From an uncultured Planctomycetia bacterium (GTDB lineage: Bacteria > Omnitrophota > Gorgyraeia > Duberdicusellales > 4484-171): a DNA stretch of 64,000 bases. The stretch lies in contig CAZHYN010000003.1 of the NCBI GenBank assembly GCA_964536865.1, positions 9,822-73,821 on the forward strand, written 5' to 3'. Below are positions 4,262 to 35,262 of this stretch, in pieces. Below the pieces are notes generated by a model that searched no databases, had not been told where the DNA came from, and saw only the letters and a program-made list of their open reading frames with translations. Both the position numbers and the translations under genes were made by a program. Position 1 is the stretch's first letter; each line of letters opens with the position of its first letter.

Positions 4262-5528
4262 CTGTCAACAAAAGTATGTAAATTCATAAAGGCTATAACC
4301 ACCTATTCCCATATTAAACCTTTCAACTAAAAAATAAATACCCTATTGACACTTTTTTCTCTCTAAATCCTGCCCTCTATCCTGGTTAGTTGTTCTAATC
4401 TTTTAAGAATCTCTCTATTAAATTGGTGCTTTTTATTAAGGAATGAAATTTAGCAGGGTATTTATAAAAAGTTAAAGTTTTGTCTATGTTTTTAAGTAAA
4501 ATATTAAAAAATTTAGGCTCTTTATCCTGGTATTCTTTTTTGAAGGTATTTAATTTACTCAGGAATTCGTTCTTTGTTTTTACTTTATAGAGATTATAGG
4601 CCTTCTCTCTTATAGAAGGAAGTAACTTCTTATTTTTTATGTATCTTAGGGCTTCCCTTACATAGTGGACACAATATATTTGAGTATCTTTATCAGGATA
4701 AACAAACAAAAAGGCATTTTCTATTGTCTTTTTGCCATCAGAGATAAGCATTTTTAAGTTTTTTCCCTCTAGACCTTTTTCCTTTAATTCAAAGAAAAAG
4801 TTTGTATAGTTTATCTCATTTTCACTTGATACTATTTTAAAATAAAGGATTTCATAGCTTAAATCCTCTTTTATCTCTATGCAGAATAAACAAGGCCTCT
4901 TTCTTTTACCCTCTGGCTTTATCTTTATATATTTGGCATCTACTATTAAGAAGAAATAATCATCGGTTAATTTTTTCTTTAAGAATTGATTAACTAAGCT
5001 ATCTAATCTTTTTAAAATATTAGATACTGTTTGATGGCTTATGCTTGATTCTGAGAAGAAATTATAGAAAAACTTAGCTGTTTTTCTTGTAGATTGCCCA
5101 TTTAGAAAACAATTAAGTATGGCATAGTCAAATTCATCTAATCTTCTTTGATAGGCCTTTATGAGTTTAAATTTAACTTTTCTTCTTGCCCGAGGTACTA
5201 AAAAATTATCAATTCTGCCTCCAATATGGGTGATAAGGCTTCTTGGATGGTAGCCGTTCCTGTAGCCTTCTCTTAATTCACAGCGCTGGTATCTTTCTGC
5301 TTTCAATATGGCTTCTAATTCCTTATTTAGGCTATATTCTAAAACTTGCTTTATCATTTGCTTTACCTTGCCTCTTAAATCAAGCCAGAATATCTCTTTT
5401 GGCAAAATATCCTTGAGGTCAGTCCACCTTAGGAGTAAATTTTTACCAGAATCAAAGCTTATTTGTTTGCCGGCTTATCACCTCCTTTCCTTTTTAGGAG
5501 GGTATAGCCTTTTTTATTTAGCCTGTCA
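4262..5528 (-). mobile_element. IS256-family insertion sequence (about 1.25 kb) with imperfect terminal inverted repeats
   Basis: IR-like AAAGGCTATAACCACCTATTC at 4288-4308 matches the reverse complement of GGAGGGTATAGCCTTT at 5497-5512 (14/16). A CTGTCAA motif is present on both flanks (4262-4268 and 5522-5528). The element encloses the transposase ORF. Confidence 0.5.
4395..5405 (-). CDS. IS256-family (Mutator-type) transposase, C-terminally truncated or degenerate
   Basis: RYQRCELREGYRNGYHPRSLITHIGGRIDNFLVPRARR and the DDE region (...LISDGKKTIENAFLFVYPDKDTQIYCVHYVREALRYI...) match IS256 transposases. The ORF stops after STNLIERFLKD, about 50 aa short of full length. Confidence 0.7.
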   Translation of the reverse strand: MPKEIFWLDLRGKVKQMIKQVLEYSLNKELEAILKAERYQRCELREGYRNGYHPRSLITHIGGRIDNFLVPRARRKVKFKLIKAYQRRLDEFDYAILNCFLNGQSTRKTAKFFYNFFSESSISHQTVSNILKRLDSLVNQFLKKKLTDDYFFLIVDAKYIKIKPEGKRKRPCLFCIEIKEDLSYEILYFKIVSSENEINYTNFFFELKEKGLEGKNLKMLISDGKKTIENAFLFVYPDKDTQIYCVHYVREALRYIKNKKLLPSIREKAYNLYKVKTKNEFLSKLNTFKKEYQDKEPKFFNILLKNIDKTLTFYKYPAKFHSLIKSTNLIERFLKD

Positions 5529-5556: not shown

Positions 5557-6459
5557 CTATCCTTTTTCCAAGTAACAAGCTAAGAAATGATTATTTTCAA
5601 TCTCTATGAGAGTTGGTTCTTTAAGACATACCTCCTTCTTATAAGGACACCGTGGAAAAAATCTACATCCTTTCTCAGGTAAAGTTGGTTCAGGAATATC
5701 TTTTAATTTAAGAGCAGTGGCTTCCAGGAGAAGCTTTGTATAAGGATGAAGAGGATTTTTATAAATTAAATCTTTTGGAGCAAATTCTACTATCTTACCA
5801 TAGTACATTACAAACACCCACCAGGCTAAGTGTTTTACTAACTTAAGATTATGAGATATAAAAAGAAAACCTACTTTCTTTTCTTGTTGAATCTTAAGAA
5901 GGAGATCGATAATCTTACTAGTGGTAGAGATATCTAAAGCAGAAGTAGGCTCATCCAAAATAAGAAGGGAAGGATTATTTATAAGACTCCGGGCAATACA
6001 AACTCTTTGCAGTTGACCCCCACTTAATTGGTGGGGATAACGCCAAAGAACATTTTCTGGCAACTCTACACTTTTCAACAATTCCTTAAAAAACGTGACT
6101 GCCTCTCTCTTATTCATCTTGGTAAATATAGAAAGTGCTTCATAGAAAGAAAAAAATACTCTACAACGTGGATCTAAACTAAGGTAAGGATTCTGAAATA
6201 CCATCTGTGCATTCCTTCTTAAAAATGCTCTGTTTTTCTTAGAGGTTATCTCCTCGCCTCTAAGGTAAATTTTCCCTGCTTCAGGAGGATAAAGCCCTAC
6301 AATCACCTTAGCGAGAGTAGTCTTCCCACAACCGGATTCCCCTACCAAAGCAGAGGTTTGCCCCTCTTCTACAAAAAGGTTCACCCCATCCAGAGCTTTA
6401 ACTACCTTTCTCCTATGAATAAAGTATTTTCTCACTTCCTCTATCTGTAAGAGTTTCAT
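5557..6459 (-). CDS. oppF: oligopeptide/dipeptide ABC transporter ATP-binding protein
   Basis: Walker A GESGCGKTT, LSGGQLQRVCIARSL signature, and a C-terminal oligopeptide-type extension. Confidence 0.85.
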   Translation of the reverse strand: MKLLQIEEVRKYFIHRRKVVKALDGVNLFVEEGQTSALVGESGCGKTTLAKVIVGLYPPEAGKIYLRGEEITSKKNRAFLRRNAQMVFQNPYLSLDPRCRVFFSFYEALSIFTKMNKREAVTFFKELLKSVELPENVLWRYPHQLSGGQLQRVCIARSLINNPSLLILDEPTSALDISTTSKIIDLLLKIQQEKKVGFLFISHNLKLVKHLAWWVFVMYYGKIVEFAPKDLIYKNPLHPYTKLLLEATALKLKDIPEPTLPEKGCRFFPRCPYKKEVCLKEPTLIEIENNHFLACYLEKG

Positions 6460-22310: not shown

Positions 22311-22435
22311 GATTAGTAAACCCCGAACCACGCCTTTCCAGGCGTGGCTTTGGAGTATACCCTTCGGGTCTTTTGATATGCATTCATCCACGGCTTTACC
22401 TCGCCCTTTCAAGGAAAGGGCGAGGTGGCTTTCTG
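22311..22435 (-). repeat. GC-rich structured repeat element, copy A (candidate ncRNA/cis-RNA; in the 5' leader of pcm)
   Basis: About 125 nt, bounded by CCCCGAACCAC...GTGGTTCGGGG. Three internal hairpins, including a perfect 12-bp stem CCTCGCCCTTTC/GAAAGGGCGAGG. A second copy sits at 27998-28121 with compensatory changes. Confidence 0.6.
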
Positions 22436-22866
22436 TGGTTCGGGGTAAACTCTTCCTCACTGTCTTAAAACCTCGCTATTGAAATAACAAATACTTACTA
22501 GCCTAACTAATGTGATTTATTATATCATAAATTGTATACTTTTAATCTAAACTTACTGATACATAACAAAAAGTTAAATCTCTACTATAGTTATGGAAAG
22601 AATAAACTCAACAATAGTCTTTTTATGATATTTATTACATTCTTACTTAGAAATATAAAGAAAAGACTATCGATTAACTAGAAAGCACCTCGGAAGGTAA
22701 AACTGGTTACTAAAGCTCAAAACTTTCTATTTGTCTATTGAAAACATTCCTCTCTGTTATACGTAATAGAACAACTCACCATTTAGATTTAGAAAGAGTT
22801 TAGAGGATTAAATTCATAAAAATGACTATCCTTATATCTCTTCTATTATTGTAGGGGATATCTTAG

Positions 22867-24888: not shown

Positions 24889-26463
24889 TCAGGAAGTCAA
24901 TAATTGCTTTGCTTTCTGTAACTTCTCAAAGAAAAATTCCTTATATAGCTGTACAGTCCAAGATCTTACAATTCTTTGGCCAATGATACGAAAGACATAA
25001 TTACGAGATCTTCGACACCATTTCTTCCATCCTACTCTGATCCTGTTAAAATAGAAAGGTAAACTAATAATAGAAATCAAATTCAACAAAAATATGAATA
25101 AGTATCTTATATGATAAAAATGTCCCATAATTTTTCGTATGGCAGACTGCATCCCTTCAGGAGTAAGAGGATAATCTGGTTTAAAGAGAGGAAAAGTGCC
25201 ATCATAGTATTCCCAGCCCAATACAGAGCGAGGATATACTCGGCTGTTAGAGAGGAGTCTTGCTCTTAACTCCGTACCAGGTAGGGGGATAGGCAAGAGT
25301 ACCTGGATGGTATCAATCTTTGCTTTTTTTATAAAATTCCTGAAATATTTTATTCTTTCTTCAACCCTCATTCTAAAATTAAGTTTCTCTTTTGTGGGAT
25401 AACCAAAAATAAACATACCATGTATGAAGAATCCAAATCTGTGAAAAACCCTAGTCAATTCTAACATATCTCTGGATCTTAAAGACTTATTCATAGCTTT
25501 AAGCTCTTCATCTATTGGGGACTCAAAACCAATACTTACAACCTTGATATTAGCTTGCCTCATTGCCGTGAGTAACTCTTCATCCTTAGCTTTATCTAAG
25601 CGGATTTGAACTGTAAATCTCAAAGCCACACCCCTTGATGTTTGATATTCTGCTAACATTTTACATAGTTTTAAAGTTTCGTCGCGGTCCTGACCAAATA
25701 GGTCATCGATAATAAAGAATTCTCTTGCACCCATTGTCTTTACAAGCTTATCAACCTGCCTAATTAGTTTTTGGCTGGATGCATAGCGAGGCTTACCTTT
25801 AACTGTACAAAACTCACAATTCATTTTACATCCTCGAACTCTTCCCACGGGAAACAGTTTTATCCTAGCGTATTTAAGAAGAGAGAAATCAGGAAGAGGA
25901 AGGTCATCAAGATTTTGGATAGGAATCCGTTGAGTGGTATAAATTATTTTGTCCTCCTTCCTAAAAGCAATGCCAGGTATCGAAGACAAATCACCTCCTT
26001 CAGAAAAAGCACAAAGGAGTTCTCTTATACTCATCTCTCCCTCTCCTCGGACGATACAATCTATACCTGAAAATAAAGCCTCGGGTATTGTTTCATCCAC
26101 AAAGTGTTGACCACCAGCAATAGTTATTACTCCTCTCTGTTTATAAAATTTAGTCAATTCATAGATTCGAGGTAAAGAACAGGTTAATCCTCCATAGAAC
26201 CCTACCACGTCCGCTGGTTTCTGCTTCTGAAGTAATTCATGGTTTATGTTACCTGAAAAATTTCTTAGATGGGGATTACGAAAATTATTTTCATCGATAA
26301 CCTCTACATCCCATCCTTTGACTTCCTGTGCAGAAACAGCAATGTAGAGAGGTCCCAAAGTAGTTGTTTTGTTAGTAACAAAAGAATATACATTAAATCT
26401 AGAATAAGCCGGGATGATTATACGTAACAAATATTTTTTCTTGGACTCTAATGTATATTTCAT
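24889..26463 (-). CDS. B12-binding domain radical SAM protein
   Basis: 524 aa. An N-terminal cobalamin-binding-like domain is followed by a CKMNCEFC (Cx3Cx2C) radical SAM core. Confidence 0.7.
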   Translation of the reverse strand: MKYTLESKKKYLLRIIIPAYSRFNVYSFVTNKTTTLGPLYIAVSAQEVKGWDVEVIDENNFRNPHLRNFSGNINHELLQKQKPADVVGFYGGLTCSLPRIYELTKFYKQRGVITIAGGQHFVDETIPEALFSGIDCIVRGEGEMSIRELLCAFSEGGDLSSIPGIAFRKEDKIIYTTQRIPIQNLDDLPLPDFSLLKYARIKLFPVGRVRGCKMNCEFCTVKGKPRYASSQKLIRQVDKLVKTMGAREFFIIDDLFGQDRDETLKLCKMLAEYQTSRGVALRFTVQIRLDKAKDEELLTAMRQANIKVVSIGFESPIDEELKAMNKSLRSRDMLELTRVFHRFGFFIHGMFIFGYPTKEKLNFRMRVEERIKYFRNFIKKAKIDTIQVLLPIPLPGTELRARLLSNSRVYPRSVLGWEYYDGTFPLFKPDYPLTPEGMQSAIRKIMGHFYHIRYLFIFLLNLISIISLPFYFNRIRVGWKKWCRRSRNYVFRIIGQRIVRSWTVQLYKEFFFEKLQKAKQLLTS

Positions 26464-27004
26464 GTTATCTTAACACTTAAACAGTAGCTTAATCCTAAAA
26501 TCTCTAAAGCAATCATTGTGATTATCCAGACTATTTTTAAATAAAATAAATTTGTTACTATTAAGCTGGAATTTGATTTAGAGCTCCCTCTACTTAGAAG
26601 GTTAGTTACTCCTATCCAAGAACATAGATTCACAAGGTTTGACTTAATTGATTTCTTCGTTATAAATCTCCTATAATGACTAAGGTTACCATAAACCTCA
26701 TTACAAATAGGGAATACCTAAAGATTAGGTATTATATATAGAAGCAATTTTAAAGATGGATGGACTAACTACTTCAAATATAAAGAGTTGTAGTTGATAT
26801 CCCTATTTATCGCCACCCTAAAATGAACTTCTTATATTAACTTTAAGGCTAAATTATTCCTACACTATACACCCTAATACTTTTCAGTACTATTGTCAAG
26901 ATAAAAATGTTTGGAGTATGTGTCAAGTATTTGGGGGTAGCTTTTTTAATGTTAGTTTGTCAAAAGGTTTAATGTAGACCTAACCCAGCCTGTCTATCAT
27001 TCAT

Positions 27005-27154
27005 CGTCTTTTAACGTTTTCACGTTCATACGTTTATACGTTCCCACGTTCATACGTTTACACATTTTTACGTTCTCACGTTTACACGTTCCCATGTTTA
27101 TACGTTCTCACGTTTACACGTTTATACGTTTTAACGTTTATACGTTTTAACGCC
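27005..27154. repeat. tandem array of about 19 x 8-bp units (ACGTTYWY core)
   Basis: ...TAACGTTT TCACGTTC ATACGTTT ATACGTTC CCACGTTC ATACGTTT ACACATTT TTACGTTC TCACGTTT ACACGTTC CCATGTTT ATACGTTC TCACGTTT ACACGTTT ATACGTTT TAACGTTT ATACGTTT TAACG... Strict 8-bp periodicity; no reading frame. Confidence 0.85.
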
Positions 27155-27997
27155 TTTGACATATTATTTTAAAAACATTTTCCCAAGTTAAAGGGCATCC
27201 AGAAAAAATATAACAAAATTTATTGCGATAGCAATTAAAATTGTTAACATTTGATTCCTAAGCTAAAGGTTTATTTATTAAAGGTTTGTTCCTTCTCTCC
27301 GGCTAAAATCCTTAATCTTATGCAACATTTCAGTTTCAAACAAAAATGTTGCACATCATTTTTATTTCCAGTGAATCCCTTTTACAAATTTCCCATTATT
27401 CACAAAAAAGAAAAACTACTACTATTCTTCCCTTCCTACTACCTCACTAAATTTTACACTAACCAACAAAATTTCTGAAGATGCAGTTCGTTAGGTAAAT
27501 TTTATGATATTCCAAATTCTTCAGCTCAACCTCGCAGGTTAATTTGGTTGTTTCCACTCCTGGGGTGGAAATTGCAAATTTTTATCTCTGCCATAAAAGC
27601 TTCAGATAATTTGTAAAACAGAATTATAGTTAAATACATTTATCTTTTTGCTATTGCAATGTAAAGACGATAGAGACCTCCGTTGTTAAAGAAGATACCT
27701 TCATTTCTTCAGGTATAGGTGGAAAAGGTTGGGCTCTTTTTATTGTAGAGATTGCTTCTTTATTTAAGATATTAAAACTTGATGACTTTATAATTTTGAT
27801 ATCTCTGGCAAAACCTGTAGATAAATATGAATACCTACTGCTAAAATATGTGCTACAGGACTTCTTGATTCTTTACATAACTTTTCTGCTTCCTCTAATT
27901 TGCTTTCCAGCAATAATTTCTTTACCTGAGCAGTTAGATTACCTACATTGGTCTTTATCCTGTAAAAGTGCCACAGTTTTCCTAAAACAATAACAAA

Positions 27998-28121
27998 CCC
28001 CGAACCACAGGTTTATACCCGTGGCTTTGGGATGCCTCCTTCAGGTCTTTGATATACATTCATCCCCGACTTTACCCCGCCCTTTCAAGGAAAGGGCGGG
28101 GTGGCTTTCTGCGGTTCGGGG
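27998..28121 (-). repeat. GC-rich structured repeat element, copy B
   Basis: Co-linear with copy A over about 124 nt. Base-pair covariation is seen in three hairpins. Remaining mismatches become G-U wobbles only when the element is read on the minus strand. Confidence 0.6.
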
Positions 28122-28361
28122 TAAAAGCTATTACTGAACATAACAAAATCGGCTAAATTAAAAGGCCACCTTTTAAGAAGAATTTGAGCATAAAAACCTT
28201 TTTTCTCCGGTTATCTATTTAACAACGGCTGGAGGGTTATTTTTTATAAATGATTGCCTCTTTACCTAAAACTTCATTGATGCCTCACCAAAAAAGTATT
28301 AAGGTATTATCTCCATTTTCTTTGATACTCTTCTTAAAAAATGAGGCAAATTAAACTTCTT

Positions 28362-29378
28362 CTAAAATGTCCACATCCCTCCACATTTAATCACAAAATC
28401 CTCCTTCCAACCTTTCTTAGCCTTATAGTCCCAATCAATTCCTACAAATACTTTTTTATGATGTCCAGCCTCTCCTCTTAATGGAGAATATACAAATTTT
28501 AAAGCCAAAGCATGCCTATAACGTTCAATATGTGATTTATATTGAGGGTTACCCGGAGCTGTTACTCTTATCTTTTCTTCAAATTCATTAGGTTTAATTT
28601 GTATCCATCCTATAGGACCACCTACTAAGGTAAATTTTTTATCAGGAAAAGGGGAATATTCTACAAAGAACTTATAGCCAATTATATCTCCAACTTCCTC
28701 ATCAGATTTACCCCAACCACTCACATCTCTTCTTTCTCCTATCAAATCATAAAAAATATGGTTACAAAGTTCAACTTTATCAGTAAGCTCTTCGGTAGAT
28801 AATAAAGCTATTCTTAACACATTAGCTCCTCTGCTCTCATTTCCTAACTCATTTTTTAATCCTTCTTTTTCAGTAACATCAAATTTATAACCTAACCCAA
28901 TTGCTGCATCTATATTTTTGAAAATTCCTATAGTCTGTTTATCTATAAATTTATATTTTCCTGAAATCCAAATTTCGGTTAAACCATTATCTTTTTTAGT
29001 GCACCATTTACCTGAACCCGGCCTTTTACCTCCTTTGCAATTTAGCTGGTGAGTCTCATACTTTCTATCTATCCATTCATAAGTAAAGAGAAGCCCTACA
29101 TCAAACTTATCAGTTAAACCATATCCTAAACGAAGGTCTATCTTATCTCTTTTAGAATTCCAGCCCGAAGGCAAATCTTCTATTTTTCCTGTAGCAGGAG
29201 ACCAGTACTTTTTATGTTCAATATGCCTGTAAAGCACTTTTGGCCAGAATTCTCCTTTCTTTAATCCATGGGGGCAACCGGTTACTCTTTCTGCAATTGC
29301 GTTCTCTGAAAACAAAAAGGAAATTACAATTGTTACCACCCCAAACAAAAATACCGAGTTTCTAAACAGATATCTCAT
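28362..29378 (-). CDS. putative outer-membrane beta-barrel protein
   Basis: Signal peptide (MRYLFRNSVFLFGVVTIVISFLFSENAIA), an alternating amphipathic pattern, and a C-terminal ...GGMWTF ending in Phe. Confidence 0.5.
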   Translation of the reverse strand: MRYLFRNSVFLFGVVTIVISFLFSENAIAERVTGCPHGLKKGEFWPKVLYRHIEHKKYWSPATGKIEDLPSGWNSKRDKIDLRLGYGLTDKFDVGLLFTYEWIDRKYETHQLNCKGGKRPGSGKWCTKKDNGLTEIWISGKYKFIDKQTIGIFKNIDAAIGLGYKFDVTEKEGLKNELGNESRGANVLRIALLSTEELTDKVELCNHIFYDLIGERRDVSGWGKSDEEVGDIIGYKFFVEYSPFPDKKFTLVGGPIGWIQIKPNEFEEKIRVTAPGNPQYKSHIERYRHALALKFVYSPLRGEAGHHKKVFVGIDWDYKAKKGWKEDFVIKCGGMWTF

Positions 29379-33055: not shown

Positions 33056-34024
33056 GTGGAGGTCTTAAGGGCAAAATGCCTGAATCCCTCATGCCCTATA
33101 AGGTCTTTTATCATACTTCCCGAAGGCATAGAGAAATTTGCCCGGGCCACAGAGAGACTAAAGAAGGAAGCGTTGTGTGGAATCATAAATGATAATTCCA
33201 CTACCCCCAGGATTTCCCGGCGCTTTGAAAGGGTGTTTAACACCACCGGCTCCAAGTCTTCCATTGACCGTTGGAAGCATGAGGCGGCGGATAAGCTGAG
33301 TGCCAAGGAGATCATCGCAAGATTGAACTTCTCCGGTATCCTCTGTATTGATGAATATAAACCCAAGCGGTATAAGGGCTATGACTTAATAGACTCTGAT
33401 GCTAAAACCTCAAGAATACTCTATCTTGAAAAGGCCTATGGTTTAGGCAGGGGCGTTGTCAAAGAGCATTTTCAGACAATAAAATCGCTGGGTATTGAAC
33501 CTTGGGCAATAATCTTTGATATGCGGGCCTGCTTCCCTAAAGCAGCCAAAACTGTCTTCGGCAAAGATATTATCATCCAGCATGACTACTTCCATGTAAT
33601 GAAGATAATCCACTACCACCTAAATAGGGCGATGGCTGAATATAGAAGAATCTTAAAAGAGCAAGGCATAGATACTTTAGATATCTGGCTTGCCCGCTGG
33701 GTTATCCTAAAGAATATGGAACGCTGGAGTTTTAAAGAGTGCAGAATCATCGAAAATCTTCTTGCCAAATATCAGGGAACAACCATTGAAGATATCCTTA
33801 TCTTAAAACAAAAGATTAGAGATATATTCATTGCGTCTAAAAGCCAACAGGAAGCCTATTTAAAACGGGATGCTCTTACCAAAGAAAACTGGTATTTTAA
33901 GAATAAACACTTTGCCAATATCATTAAATTCTTAAATACACCATACTTCAGATACATAACCACATTCTTAGATCATCCAGAGATACCCAAGAGTGGCAAT
34001 TCAGAGAATGTAATCCGTACCTGA
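33056..34024 (+). CDS. ISL3-family transposase, copy 1 (lacks the N-terminal zinc finger; stop before the conserved C-terminal peptide)
   Basis: ILCIDEYKPKRYKGYDLIDSD, the ISL3 DDE block. Ends ...GNSENVIRT-TGA, and the conserved C-terminal piece MEKVRYGF...KLYQIYRYLGGK continues in frame at 34031-34129. Confidence 0.6.
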   Translation: MEVLRAKCLNPSCPIRSFIILPEGIEKFARATERLKKEALCGIINDNSTTPRISRRFERVFNTTGSKSSIDRWKHEAADKLSAKEIIARLNFSGILCIDEYKPKRYKGYDLIDSDAKTSRILYLEKAYGLGRGVVKEHFQTIKSLGIEPWAIIFDMRACFPKAAKTVFGKDIIIQHDYFHVMKIIHYHLNRAMAEYRRILKEQGIDTLDIWLARWVILKNMERWSFKECRIIENLLAKYQGTTIEDILILKQKIRDIFIASKSQQEAYLKRDALTKENWYFKNKHFANIIKFLNTPYFRYITTFLDHPEIPKSGNSENVIRT

Positions 34025-34287
34025 AGGCAGATGGAGAAAGTAAGATATGGATTTAAGACAGAGAGAGGAAGGCAGAACCACTTGAAACTGTATCAGATTT
34101 ACCGCTATCTGGGAGGTAAGTTAGACTAGGGACAATTTTTCTTATCTAACTCGTTAATCATCAAGTAGTTATCGTGAAAAATTGCACAAAATTTAGAAGC
34201 TTTCCCAAATCTATCGCAAATATTTTATATAAGGCCCTTGCTTCTGTCATAAGTTAAGATAGCCTTCTTTTAAAAAGGAGGCTATTT

Positions 34288-35262
34288 ATGGGGAAAGAAG
34301 CAAGAGTAAAAGTTATTAAGAGTCGTGTTCCTAAATGGGTTATCTGCCCATTTTGTGGAGTAAAACAACCTTTTAAGAAAGAAAGAGGAAATTGGCGTAT
34401 GGTAAAAGATATTAACCTTGATAAATCTCTCCTTCTTAAGGTCCAAACTATTTATGCTAAATGCTTAAATCCTCATTGTCAAAGAAATAGCTTTGCTTTA
34501 CCAAATGGTTTTGAAAAATATCAAAGAGCAACAGATAGATTTAAACAAGAAGCTTTGAGTGGTTTAATCTGTGATAACTCTACCTTACCCAGAGTAGCTA
34601 AAAGATTTAATCGCATATTTAATACTACTGGCTCTAAATCTACCCTTGATAGATGGAAGCGCAAAGAGGCAGATAAATATGATTTTAAACAGATTATCTC
34701 TAAATTAGGTTTCGGTGGCATTCTCTGTATTGATGAGTATAAGCCTAAACGCTCTAAAACCTATGACTTAATAGCTTCTGATAGATTAACTGAGAGGATA
34801 CTCTATTTGGAGAATCTGCCTAAAATATATTCTCCTAAAGCAAAAGGTGGTATTGTTGCTAAAGGCTTAGTGGAAGATTTTGCTTATAAATTAAAGGATT
34901 TTGGCTTAAATCCTTTTGGGTGTATAGTGGATTTAGCCAGTGTCTACCCTAAACAGCTCAAAAAAGTTGAGCCTGGTGTAATTATCCAGTTTGATTACTT
35001 CCATATAGTTAAGATAGTATACTGGTATCTTAAGAATGCTATTAAGAGCTTCAGGGTATCCTTAAGAGAAACTGATGAAGTAGCTTATTCTGATATTTGG
35101 AAGCATAAATGGCGAATATTAAAAAACTTTGATAAACTATCCCTTAAAGAACATCTAATCTTAGAATACCTTATGAAGCGTTATAAGGCAACTTTAATAG
35201 AAAAAGTATTAATTTTCAAAGAGCAGGTAAGGGATATATTTAATTTATCTCAAACCCCTTAA
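34288..35262 (+). CDS. ISL3-family transposase, copy 2 (zinc finger present; frameshift and in-frame TAG before the C-terminal peptide)
   Basis: N-terminal CPFCG...C..HC knuckle and an ILCIDEYKPKRSKTYDLIASD block. After ...LSQTP the reading continues in the +1 frame, hits an in-frame TAG near 35441, then the MEKVRYG...KLYQIYHYLGGKV peptide runs to about 35536. Confidence 0.6.
   Translation: MGKEARVKVIKSRVPKWVICPFCGVKQPFKKERGNWRMVKDINLDKSLLLKVQTIYAKCLNPHCQRNSFALPNGFEKYQRATDRFKQEALSGLICDNSTLPRVAKRFNRIFNTTGSKSTLDRWKRKEADKYDFKQIISKLGFGGILCIDEYKPKRSKTYDLIASDRLTERILYLENLPKIYSPKAKGGIVAKGLVEDFAYKLKDFGLNPFGCIVDLASVYPKQLKKVEPGVIIQFDYFHIVKIVYWYLKNAIKSFRVSLRETDEVAYSDIWKHKWRILKNFDKLSLKEHLILEYLMKRYKATLIEKVLIFKEQVRDIFNLSQTP

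Follow-up and report, generated by a model that had tools for sequence, protein, structure and literature searches.

What is a strictly periodic array of 8-bp units doing between two co-directional genes of an Omnitrophota bacterium? The array, whose units consist of an ACGTT core followed by three variable bases, lies in a 64,000-nucleotide stretch of contig CAZHYN010000003.1 (GenBank assembly GCA_964536865.1, positions 9,822 to 73,821 of the forward strand), which we refer to as the window. It belongs to a dispersed, rapidly changing and previously unnoticed family of short tandem intergenic repeats, set apart from other such repeats by a fixed palindromic core and free spacers. As to its role, we tentatively favour a reiterated recognition lattice for a putative DNA-binding protein, a reading that is possible rather than probable.

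A first-pass annotation made from the letters alone had described about 19 units of ACGTTYWY with a strict 8-bp period at 27005-27154, and this description stands. Tandem Repeats Finder returned a period of 8 with 17.4 copies and 0% indels (27010-27147), the unit count resolves into 17 in-register units plus one degenerate unit at each edge, and the base content per position over 18 units (A18, C17, G17, T17, T17, T12/C6, A9/T7/C2, C8/T8/A2) agrees well with the proposed consensus: position 6 is T or C, position 7 A, T or C, position 8 C, T or A, and the spacer is free of G. The units read D-D-R-AACGT on the gene-sense (minus) strand. The array matches itself slightly better at periods 16 and 24, which indicates a higher-order block structure. 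The ACGTT core is perfect in 15 of the 17 window units; ACATT and ATGTT, in the other two, each reflect a CpG transition and contain the CpG-decay products ACAT and ATGT. The full palindrome AACGTT, which the annotation had called frequent, is present in only 2/17 units. There are eight distinct spacers among the 17 units, and no unit is identical to its neighbour. The sequence ACGTTNNNACGTT has 12 matches in the window against 0.00 expected (0 in 100 shuffles), whilst a three-unit pattern with up to 3 mismatches has 28 matches in the 64 kb against 0.47 expected, with 27 of the 28 inside the array, as anticipated from the earlier remark that nothing else in the window resembles it; a chance origin of the array is excluded. 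The identical array, without an indel, is present in an independent Logan assembly of run SRR7517633 (L001; comparison loci are given L numbers throughout). All three plus-strand frames are open across the array, yet no start-bounded open-reading frame (ORF) is found and the minus strand is full of stops, so we reject a coding repeat and agree that the array is non-coding. Nor is it a CRISPR array, as was also recognised at the outset, since the units are 8 bp and contiguous, against repeats of 24-48 bp with unique spacers.

Core and spacer contrast sharply in these arrays. Across 107 units of nine family arrays, positions 1-5 carry 1.7-2.0 bits of information each, whilst positions 6-8 carry 1.09, 0.60 and 0.57 bits. 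In the 48 units that were not found by a pattern search (the window array and three arrays of L258) the core is changed in only 4, whilst 10 spacer types are present. Of the 18 possible Y-H-H spacers 14 were seen and adjacent identical units number only 0-2 per array, so the variation is old or saturated whilst the core has stayed intact. This pattern does not fit simple slippage, from which stretches of identical units would be expected. In the window as a whole CpG is depleted about two-fold (865 observed against 1817 expected), and despite this the array retains 15/17 core CpGs. Uniform mutation with neutral turnover gives neither the core/spacer contrast nor the CpG retention, which together suggest a reader of ACGTT, or a process dependent on it, that keeps to an exact 8-nt register; judged from the sequence, it is also the pattern to be expected of the reiterated site that the annotation had proposed.

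The window array has counterparts elsewhere. When one genome per species was scanned for four ACGTT units with an 8-bp period, at least 120 loci were returned, and a metagenome scan for the pyrimidine-spacer form gave at least 119 stretches, many of them perfect simple repeats that were set aside. Two informative classes remain, one with a palindromic AACGTT core and two variable bases (AACGTTNN), the other directional (ACGTT-Y-H-H). Among the matches listed, AACGTTNN arrays have 4-15 units; they occur several per genome in Chloroflexota (Anaerolineae, Roseiflexaceae, Caldilineales), Sulfomarinibacteraceae, Planctomycetota, Bacteroidota metagenome-assembled genomes (MAGs) and other groups, are mostly intergenic, often placed between convergent genes or straight after a stop codon, and in some cases perfectly palindromic as a whole (the L003-L122 set, e.g. 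L010, L018, L025, L056, L101). Directional arrays of the window type were found in the low-GC contigs L008, L232, L198, L124 and L131, with similar low-GC arrays in L235 and L219, the latter having 53 units with G in some spacers. Three of these loci or their orthologues (≥90% identity) fall, by protein matches, in one related MAG (GCA_021163425.1, Candidatus Omnitrophota bacterium AUK132), which carries four arrays plus one remnant on three contigs, at intergenic sites unrelated to each other: an array of 13 units upstream of an SRPBCC gene (L008), three further arrays (17, 9 and 5 units) within 10.5 kb in gaps between co-directional genes (L258), and a three-unit remnant upstream of glnA (L255). 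The genes beside these sister arrays are unrelated housekeeping genes, and in L008, L232, L124, L198, L219 and L258 the array lies 20-140 nt upstream of a start codon.

In viral contigs, a control scan compared ACGTT with cores of the same composition, ACTGT and AGCTT. Arrays with at least three distinct spacers numbered 32 for ACGTT, 14 for ACTGT and 16 for AGCTT, and the control-core arrays were mostly copies of a few elements, whilst the ACGTT arrays were more diverse; at the level of sequence this contrast lends modest support to, though it does not prove, degenerate ACGT-core arrays as a real class. We found no description of ACGTT or AACGTT tandem or octamer arrays in bacteria in the literature searched. 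Some dense or unusual arrangements were also seen. L229 (729-8003) carries seven ACGTT arrays within 8 kb, one per intergenic gap with few exceptions and co-oriented with the genes, and a 42.9 kb 'viral' contig (IMGVR_UViG_3300037264_008483; L265, L276, L280, L299, L301) has ten or more ACGTTTYG arrays. L003 (~5930-6060) and L096 (364-451, 2510-2573) contain inverted pairs of opposed half-arrays, in which GAACGT units precede ACGTT units, and in L003 the half-arrays flank a terminator-like hairpin whose stem the arrays would lengthen.

Orientation is fixed relative to the genes. At 9/9 independent low-GC family loci (the window, L008/L232, L124/L255, L198/L258-1, L258-2, L258-3, L131, L219 and L235) the ACGTT strand is antisense to both co-directional flanking genes, with a two-sided probability of ~0.004 under random orientation, and arrays on the left or the right of the near-palindromic flanking module M2 keep the same strand. 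The spacers are equally one-sided, with G at 0/321 positions (107 units from nine family arrays, L219 and L235 excluded) where ~45 would be expected from the 14% G of the ACGTT strand overall. Other lineages show the opposite arrangement, ACGTT being the gene-sense strand in L229 and L096, with L058 likewise reversed. An asymmetry of this kind suggests that a single strand is what matters to the underlying process, be it transcription, replication or an RNA product.

Copy number, by contrast with core and orientation, turns over quickly. Between close relatives the sister arrays have 17 vs. 8, 10 vs. 3 and 13 vs. 14 units, whilst at the window locus the two assemblies do not differ. At the nitroreductase locus, for example, L198 and L258 have near-identical flanks around a rebuilt intergenic insert, with 16 heptamers, 8 octamers, a palindromic M2 and a 52-nt block in L198 against 2 heptamers, M2 and 17 octamers in L258. 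At the glnA locus L124 has ten units where the close relative L255 has the three-unit remnant. The orthologous L008 and L232 arrays differ in unit order as well as number, and L259 and L258 have 17 units each, of which two are different.

The arrays travel with recurrent neighbours. Module M2 (Table 1) also abuts arrays at two sites in L258 and in L008 and L232, where the array then starts TTAAAACGT, and a palindromic variant, AACTTGACA-N19-TGTCAAGTT, is found in L008, L198, L258 and L131. We rejected M2 as a sigma-70 promoter firing into the array (TTGACA-17-TATGTT), because its -35-like hexamer is the least conserved part, the supposed spacer the most conserved and the '-10' an arm of the palindrome; it was likewise rejected as a dispersed element of the repetitive extragenic palindromic (REP) kind in this genome, with one copy only in the window. 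The AAAGACGA boundary of the edge unit at 27006-27013 recurs after the L258 array at 6194-6265. The 52-nt block lies gene-sense-downstream of the ACGTT array in both the window and L198, and contains two TTGACA hexamers and an A-rich tract.

Another tandem repeat, with 7-bp units of GTAACCR / GTGACCG (palindromic GGTNACC), stands beside ACGTT arrays in L198 (107-222), L008 (~5176-5212), L232 (~680-735) and L258 (4486-4499). It begins right at the upstream gene's stop codon; L198 has 16 of its units, whereas the orthologous L258 has only 2. In L131 an array of the AAACCAAT type adjoins the ACGTT array. Between the 17-unit array and the nitroreductase gene of L258 (4680-4980) a GlgC-like (glucose-1-phosphate adenylyltransferase) remnant was read by eye from the translation.

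The anatomy nearest to that of the window array is found in two known protein-binding regions. The parH/OF region of plasmid TP228 has 20 degenerate ACTC boxes with 4-bp AT-rich spacers, each box bound by one dimer of the ribbon-helix-helix (RHH) protein ParG, and its box number and orientation are described as 'elastic', the number also in vivo (PMC3130281). Both regions are ~100-150 bp long, with degenerate tetramer boxes and 4-bp variable spacers at an 8-bp period, mostly in direct orientation and elastic in box number. Here, however, the box is ACGT rather than ACTC, the spacers are pyrimidine-only on one strand instead of simply AT-rich, no parF/parG is adjacent, and the arrays are chromosomal, in several dispersed copies in the related genome. 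MetJ binds tandem 8-bp metboxes (AGACGTCT), whose centre is ACGT, as a wheel of dimers (PMC2775130). The 8-bp register and central ACGT are common to metboxes and to our array, and one dimer per box would be expected, but the metbox is wholly palindromic whereas here only ACGT is, the flanking positions neither matching nor symmetric, and the neighbouring genes are not met genes. Metbox arrays have 2-5 boxes, against 17 here, and MetJ is a gammaproteobacterial protein whereas the host here is an Omnitrophota bacterium.

We favour a protein-recognition lattice of ParG/parH or MetJ metbox geometry, tentatively and largely by analogy, because the core is kept, the spacer is free, the phasing is exact and the anatomy is nearest to these two systems. 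A small dimeric protein would read the palindromic ACGT tetramer on duplex DNA, one dimer per 8-bp unit, and at this spacing successive dimers would be rotated by ~274 degrees and in contact, forming a helical coat on the DNA as ParG does on parH/OF boxes and MetJ on tandem metboxes. The array would be one copy of a dispersed Omnitrophota intergenic cassette family (M2 module plus array) that changes length by out-of-register recombination, in multiples of 8, 16 or 32 bp, which would make the box number elastic, whilst selection would maintain the ACGTT core, the exact phasing and the G-free spacer. Its local effect may fall on the promoter-like cluster at 26898-26970, or it may insulate the two co-directional transcription units from each other. 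Should a protein read the arrays, they would mark out a dispersed system, regulatory or architectural in nature, in an uncultivated phylum of which little is known; (ACGTTYAY)n sequences such as ACGTTTATACGTTCAC repeats would be a bait with which to find the binder, and the AACGTTNN arrays, of which Chloroflexota and other phyla have many per genome, would belong to the same unexplored class. A broader claim, which we consider unlikely, is that ACGTTYHH arrays in Omnitrophota and AACGTTNN arrays in Chloroflexota, Acidobacteriota, Planctomycetota, Bacteroidota and some viral contigs are docking lattices of a single unrecognised and widespread protein, which would coat intergenic DNA or its transcript with one subunit pair per 8 nt; the arrays would then be the chromosomal equivalent of the ParG/omega systems of plasmids and would work between transcription units as an insulator or a global regulator.

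Several observations weigh against the protein lattice. No candidate binder was found: a gene for ParA, an RHH protein or another small DNA-binding protein is absent from the ~20 Pfam-annotated neighbour ORFs (17.3-38.6 kb), and no second ACGTT array is found in the 64-kb window or the ~10 kb beyond its start, so that ~74 kb of this genome holds only one. The array is absent from orthologous radical-SAM loci, arrays adjoin decaying genes (TonB_C in the window, GlgC-like in L258), and the whole intergenic cassette is rearranged between strains with near-identical flanks, with a very loose copy number of 3 to 17 units at orthologous sites and 53 in L219. Total period-8 arrays in viral contigs are similar across the three cores (61, 61, 50), part of the comparison set was found via an intact-core search and so carries an ascertainment bias, and a duplex binder that reads a palindrome explains neither the 9/9 antisense orientation nor the G-free spacers.

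Much of this would suit a selfish or neutral minisatellite that has no function for the cell and colonises non-coding or decaying DNA, an explanation that we regard as somewhat unlikely. The CGTAAC flank of the M2 palindrome would have provided its seed, and unequal recombination or hairpin-assisted slippage would lengthen and shorten it, the self-complementary ACGT core being kept as a driver of misalignment without any reader. Copy number, and even presence, varies in close relatives, with absence at orthologous loci; the first-pass annotation had taken such absence or high variability, combined with no phenotype and no protein binding, as the mark of a neutral microsatellite, and the absence at orthologous loci and the strong length variation of sister arrays do speak in part against a fixed functional site. 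Besides the pseudogene remnants and the similar totals of other-core arrays, higher-order repeats of 16 and 32 bp are what block duplication typically produces, either strand can fold like a ladder through ACGT pairing (z ~-3), and TAACTGA heptamers and long simple sequence repeats (LSSRs) are precedents without known function (PMC4679880). Slippage, however, predicts identical neighbouring units and there are nearly none, whilst misalignment alone should not remove core variants and leave 14 spacer variants in place, since a single core change leaves a unit matching its neighbours at 7/8 positions. CpGs are kept in a CpG-depleted genome, the uniform orientation and G-free spacers require an extra assumption, and the hairpins predicted are weak, accounting for only 1-3% of the ensemble; a structured RNA or DNA was rejected on the same folds, since ladders of 4-bp helices on both strands are a trivial outcome of the ACGT palindrome. 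Selfish arrays would still be of use as hypervariable strain markers, and the preservation of a 4-bp palindromic core in a CpG-depleted genome would require a mechanistic explanation. Copy-number differences at sister loci, and the position of the array upstream of a promoter-like cluster, could also suggest a phase-variable contingency locus in which unit number switches or tunes radical-SAM expression. We consider this improbable, as the slippage-driven switch suggested by the annotation sits poorly with imperfect units, none identical to its neighbour in the window array, for which a low slippage rate is expected; the array lies neither between -35 and -10 elements nor within an ORF, the two window-locus assemblies are identical, the orthologous genes do without an array, and the neighbours of sister arrays are unrelated housekeeping genes.

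The strand asymmetry is better served by a strand-specific RNA or single-stranded DNA element, transcribed with the flanking genes as (D-D-R-AACGU)n, which would form a purine-rich, C-poor, unstructured leader or spacer and might serve as a platform for an RNA-binding protein; a passive version, in which the opposite strand (C-rich, G-poor and unstructured) would load Rho and cause polarity, is possible. The antisense placement of ACGTT at all nine loci, the missing spacer G, the constant strand on either side of M2, the six loci with arrays close before start codons and the post-transcriptional role proposed for TAACTGA heptamers (PMC4679880) all argue for such an element. We nevertheless think it quite unlikely, given that the array matches no Rfam family above chance, that a stable or covarying structure was not found, that the window array is ~550 nt from the next start codon, that orientation is reversed in L229, L096 and L058, and that M2, with its poorly conserved -35-like hexamer, is unlike a promoter. 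At the gathering score Rfam gave zero matches in the whole window, and the permissive matches to Clostridiales-1 and Prevotella-2 were rejected as weak and driven by ACGU self-pairing only. The nearness to parH anatomy would also admit a partition centromere or an iteron origin of a plasmid, phage or integrated element, which we judge very improbable: GC skew is negative throughout the window, without the sign change of an origin, no par, rep, dnaA or phage genes were found among the neighbours, the window had zero matches in the phage collection, and the context is one of chromosomal housekeeping and iron genes, with several arrays per chromosome in the related MAG. Integron attC sites, AAC/CGT promoters of extracytoplasmic function (ECF) sigma factors and LacI-type operators centred on AACGTT were considered as further ideas and dropped for poor fit.

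Other short repeats are more distant comparisons. The omega repressor of plasmid pSM19035 binds cooperatively to operator arrays of many contiguous 7-bp units (heptads), the number of which depends on the promoter, and cyanobacterial short tandemly repeated repetitive (STRR) sequences are dispersed short tandem repeats. The omega operators differ from the ACGTT array in period (7 vs. 8 bp), motif and plasmid location; the 7-bp GTAACCR arrays of L198, L008 and L232 are nearer to them in period. TAACTGA heptamer repeats are intergenic elements without known function in Beggiatoaceae, Cyanobacteria and Bacteroidetes, and the same paper cites, from the 2007 survey by Mrazek, LSSRs with units of 5-11 nt (PMC4679880). 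The window array, as a tandem intergenic repeat with a unit of this length, falls within the STRR/LSSR definition, and all share short tandem units at intergenic sites, orientation relative to genes, patchy phylogeny, variable copy number and the lack of a known binder. Many loci per genome are seen in the related MAG, against one array in ~74 kb of the window's own genome. TAACTGA, STRR and LSSR arrays, however, are near-identical copies of one heptamer, usually 2-6 and immediately before start codons, whereas here an octamer with a fixed core and free spacer reaches 17-53 units and does not abut start codons. RemA regions of Bacillus subtilis consist of AT-rich direct repeats with a period of 10 bp (7 protected plus 3) on one helix face (PMC8481266). 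They share with our array poorly conserved, repetitive, AT-rich direct repeats before promoters, and the RemA oligomer wraps DNA; RemA-like wrapping was rejected here on the difference in period (10 vs. 8 bp).

Table 1. The array, its flanking modules and the nearest features, in window coordinates
Feature	Position	Strand	Basis or remark
B12-binding radical SAM enzyme, downstream neighbour	24889..26463	-	Pfam annotation
Promoter-like site TTGACA-17-TATCTT	26898..26926	-	consensus match only; points to radical-SAM gene ~430 nt away
52-nt block ('A element')	26919..26970	-	98% identical to L198 428-478
Degenerate edge unit GTCTTTTA	27006..27013	+	minus-strand reading TAAAAGAC
Core array, 17 in-register 8-bp units ACGTT-Y-H-H	27014..27149	+	sequence, Tandem Repeats Finder
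Degenerate edge unit ACGCCTTT	27150..27157	+	junction ACGTTTTAACGC common to window array and L008
Module M2, AACTTGGGAAAATGTTTTTAAAATAATATG, 30 nt	27160..27189	-	directly upstream of array in gene sense
TonB C-terminal domain remnant, stop-to-stop fragment	27654..27872	-	PF03544, 33.9 bits, E 4.5e-8, over Pfam cut-off
338-aa protein, upstream neighbour, without Pfam family	28362..29378	-	Pfam annotation

The surroundings of the array have a GC content of ~34% and almost all genes on the minus strand. The 1.9-kb gap that holds the array (26464-28361) had been called ORF-free, and it is so in having no ORF >75 aa, though not in being empty: it contains a GC-rich structured repeat and the TonB_C match (Table 1), which shows that part of the gap is decayed coding sequence, a pseudogene remnant adjoining a cluster of feoAB, DtxR-like and ferritin iron genes. 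The annotated neighbours include a DtxR-like repressor, FeoA, FeoB, ferritin, rubrerythrin, OsmC, TrmO, PCMT and fragments of an ISL3 transposase, and no tRNA or tmRNA is present in the window. The closest named homologues of the radical-SAM protein are from Omnitrophota and PVC-group MAGs. Its orthologues in L252-L254 (71-75% nucleotide identity) have different upstream genes and no ACGT array, so the array is not an attribute of the radical-SAM gene; by this comparison the two are not functionally linked, and whether protein-read or selfish the array is not informative on the neighbouring radical-SAM or iron genes. TTGACA hexamers, of which the window has 18, are concentrated near the array: four lie at 26890-27165, three of them on the minus strand, 29-32 nt apart, in or beside the 52-nt block, and one forms the TTGACA-17-TATCTT match of Table 1. 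In gene sense the array lies upstream of the promoter-like sites.

An ACGT-specific restriction-modification system was also considered and rejected, ACGT not being avoided outside the array (45 observed against 55 expected). The tetramers GATC, CTAG and GTAC, on the other hand, are well under Markov expectation across the whole window. Two adjacent ORFs (33056-35262), on the strand opposite to almost all genes, each match parts of an ISL3 DDE transposase and are probably a disrupted insertion sequence element. The GC-rich structured repeat of the gap is a nested hairpin of 126 nt (27997-28122; minimum free energy -66 kcal/mol, z = -5.9) without an Rfam match, within which the Logan assembly breaks. 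A second copy at ~22321-22446 shares 84-88% identity, and the two differ by compensatory changes (ACCCCGCCC/GGGCGGGGT vs. ACCTCGCCC/GGGCGAGGT); a structured RNA not yet described, or else a repeat of the REP kind, would be possible identities for the element.

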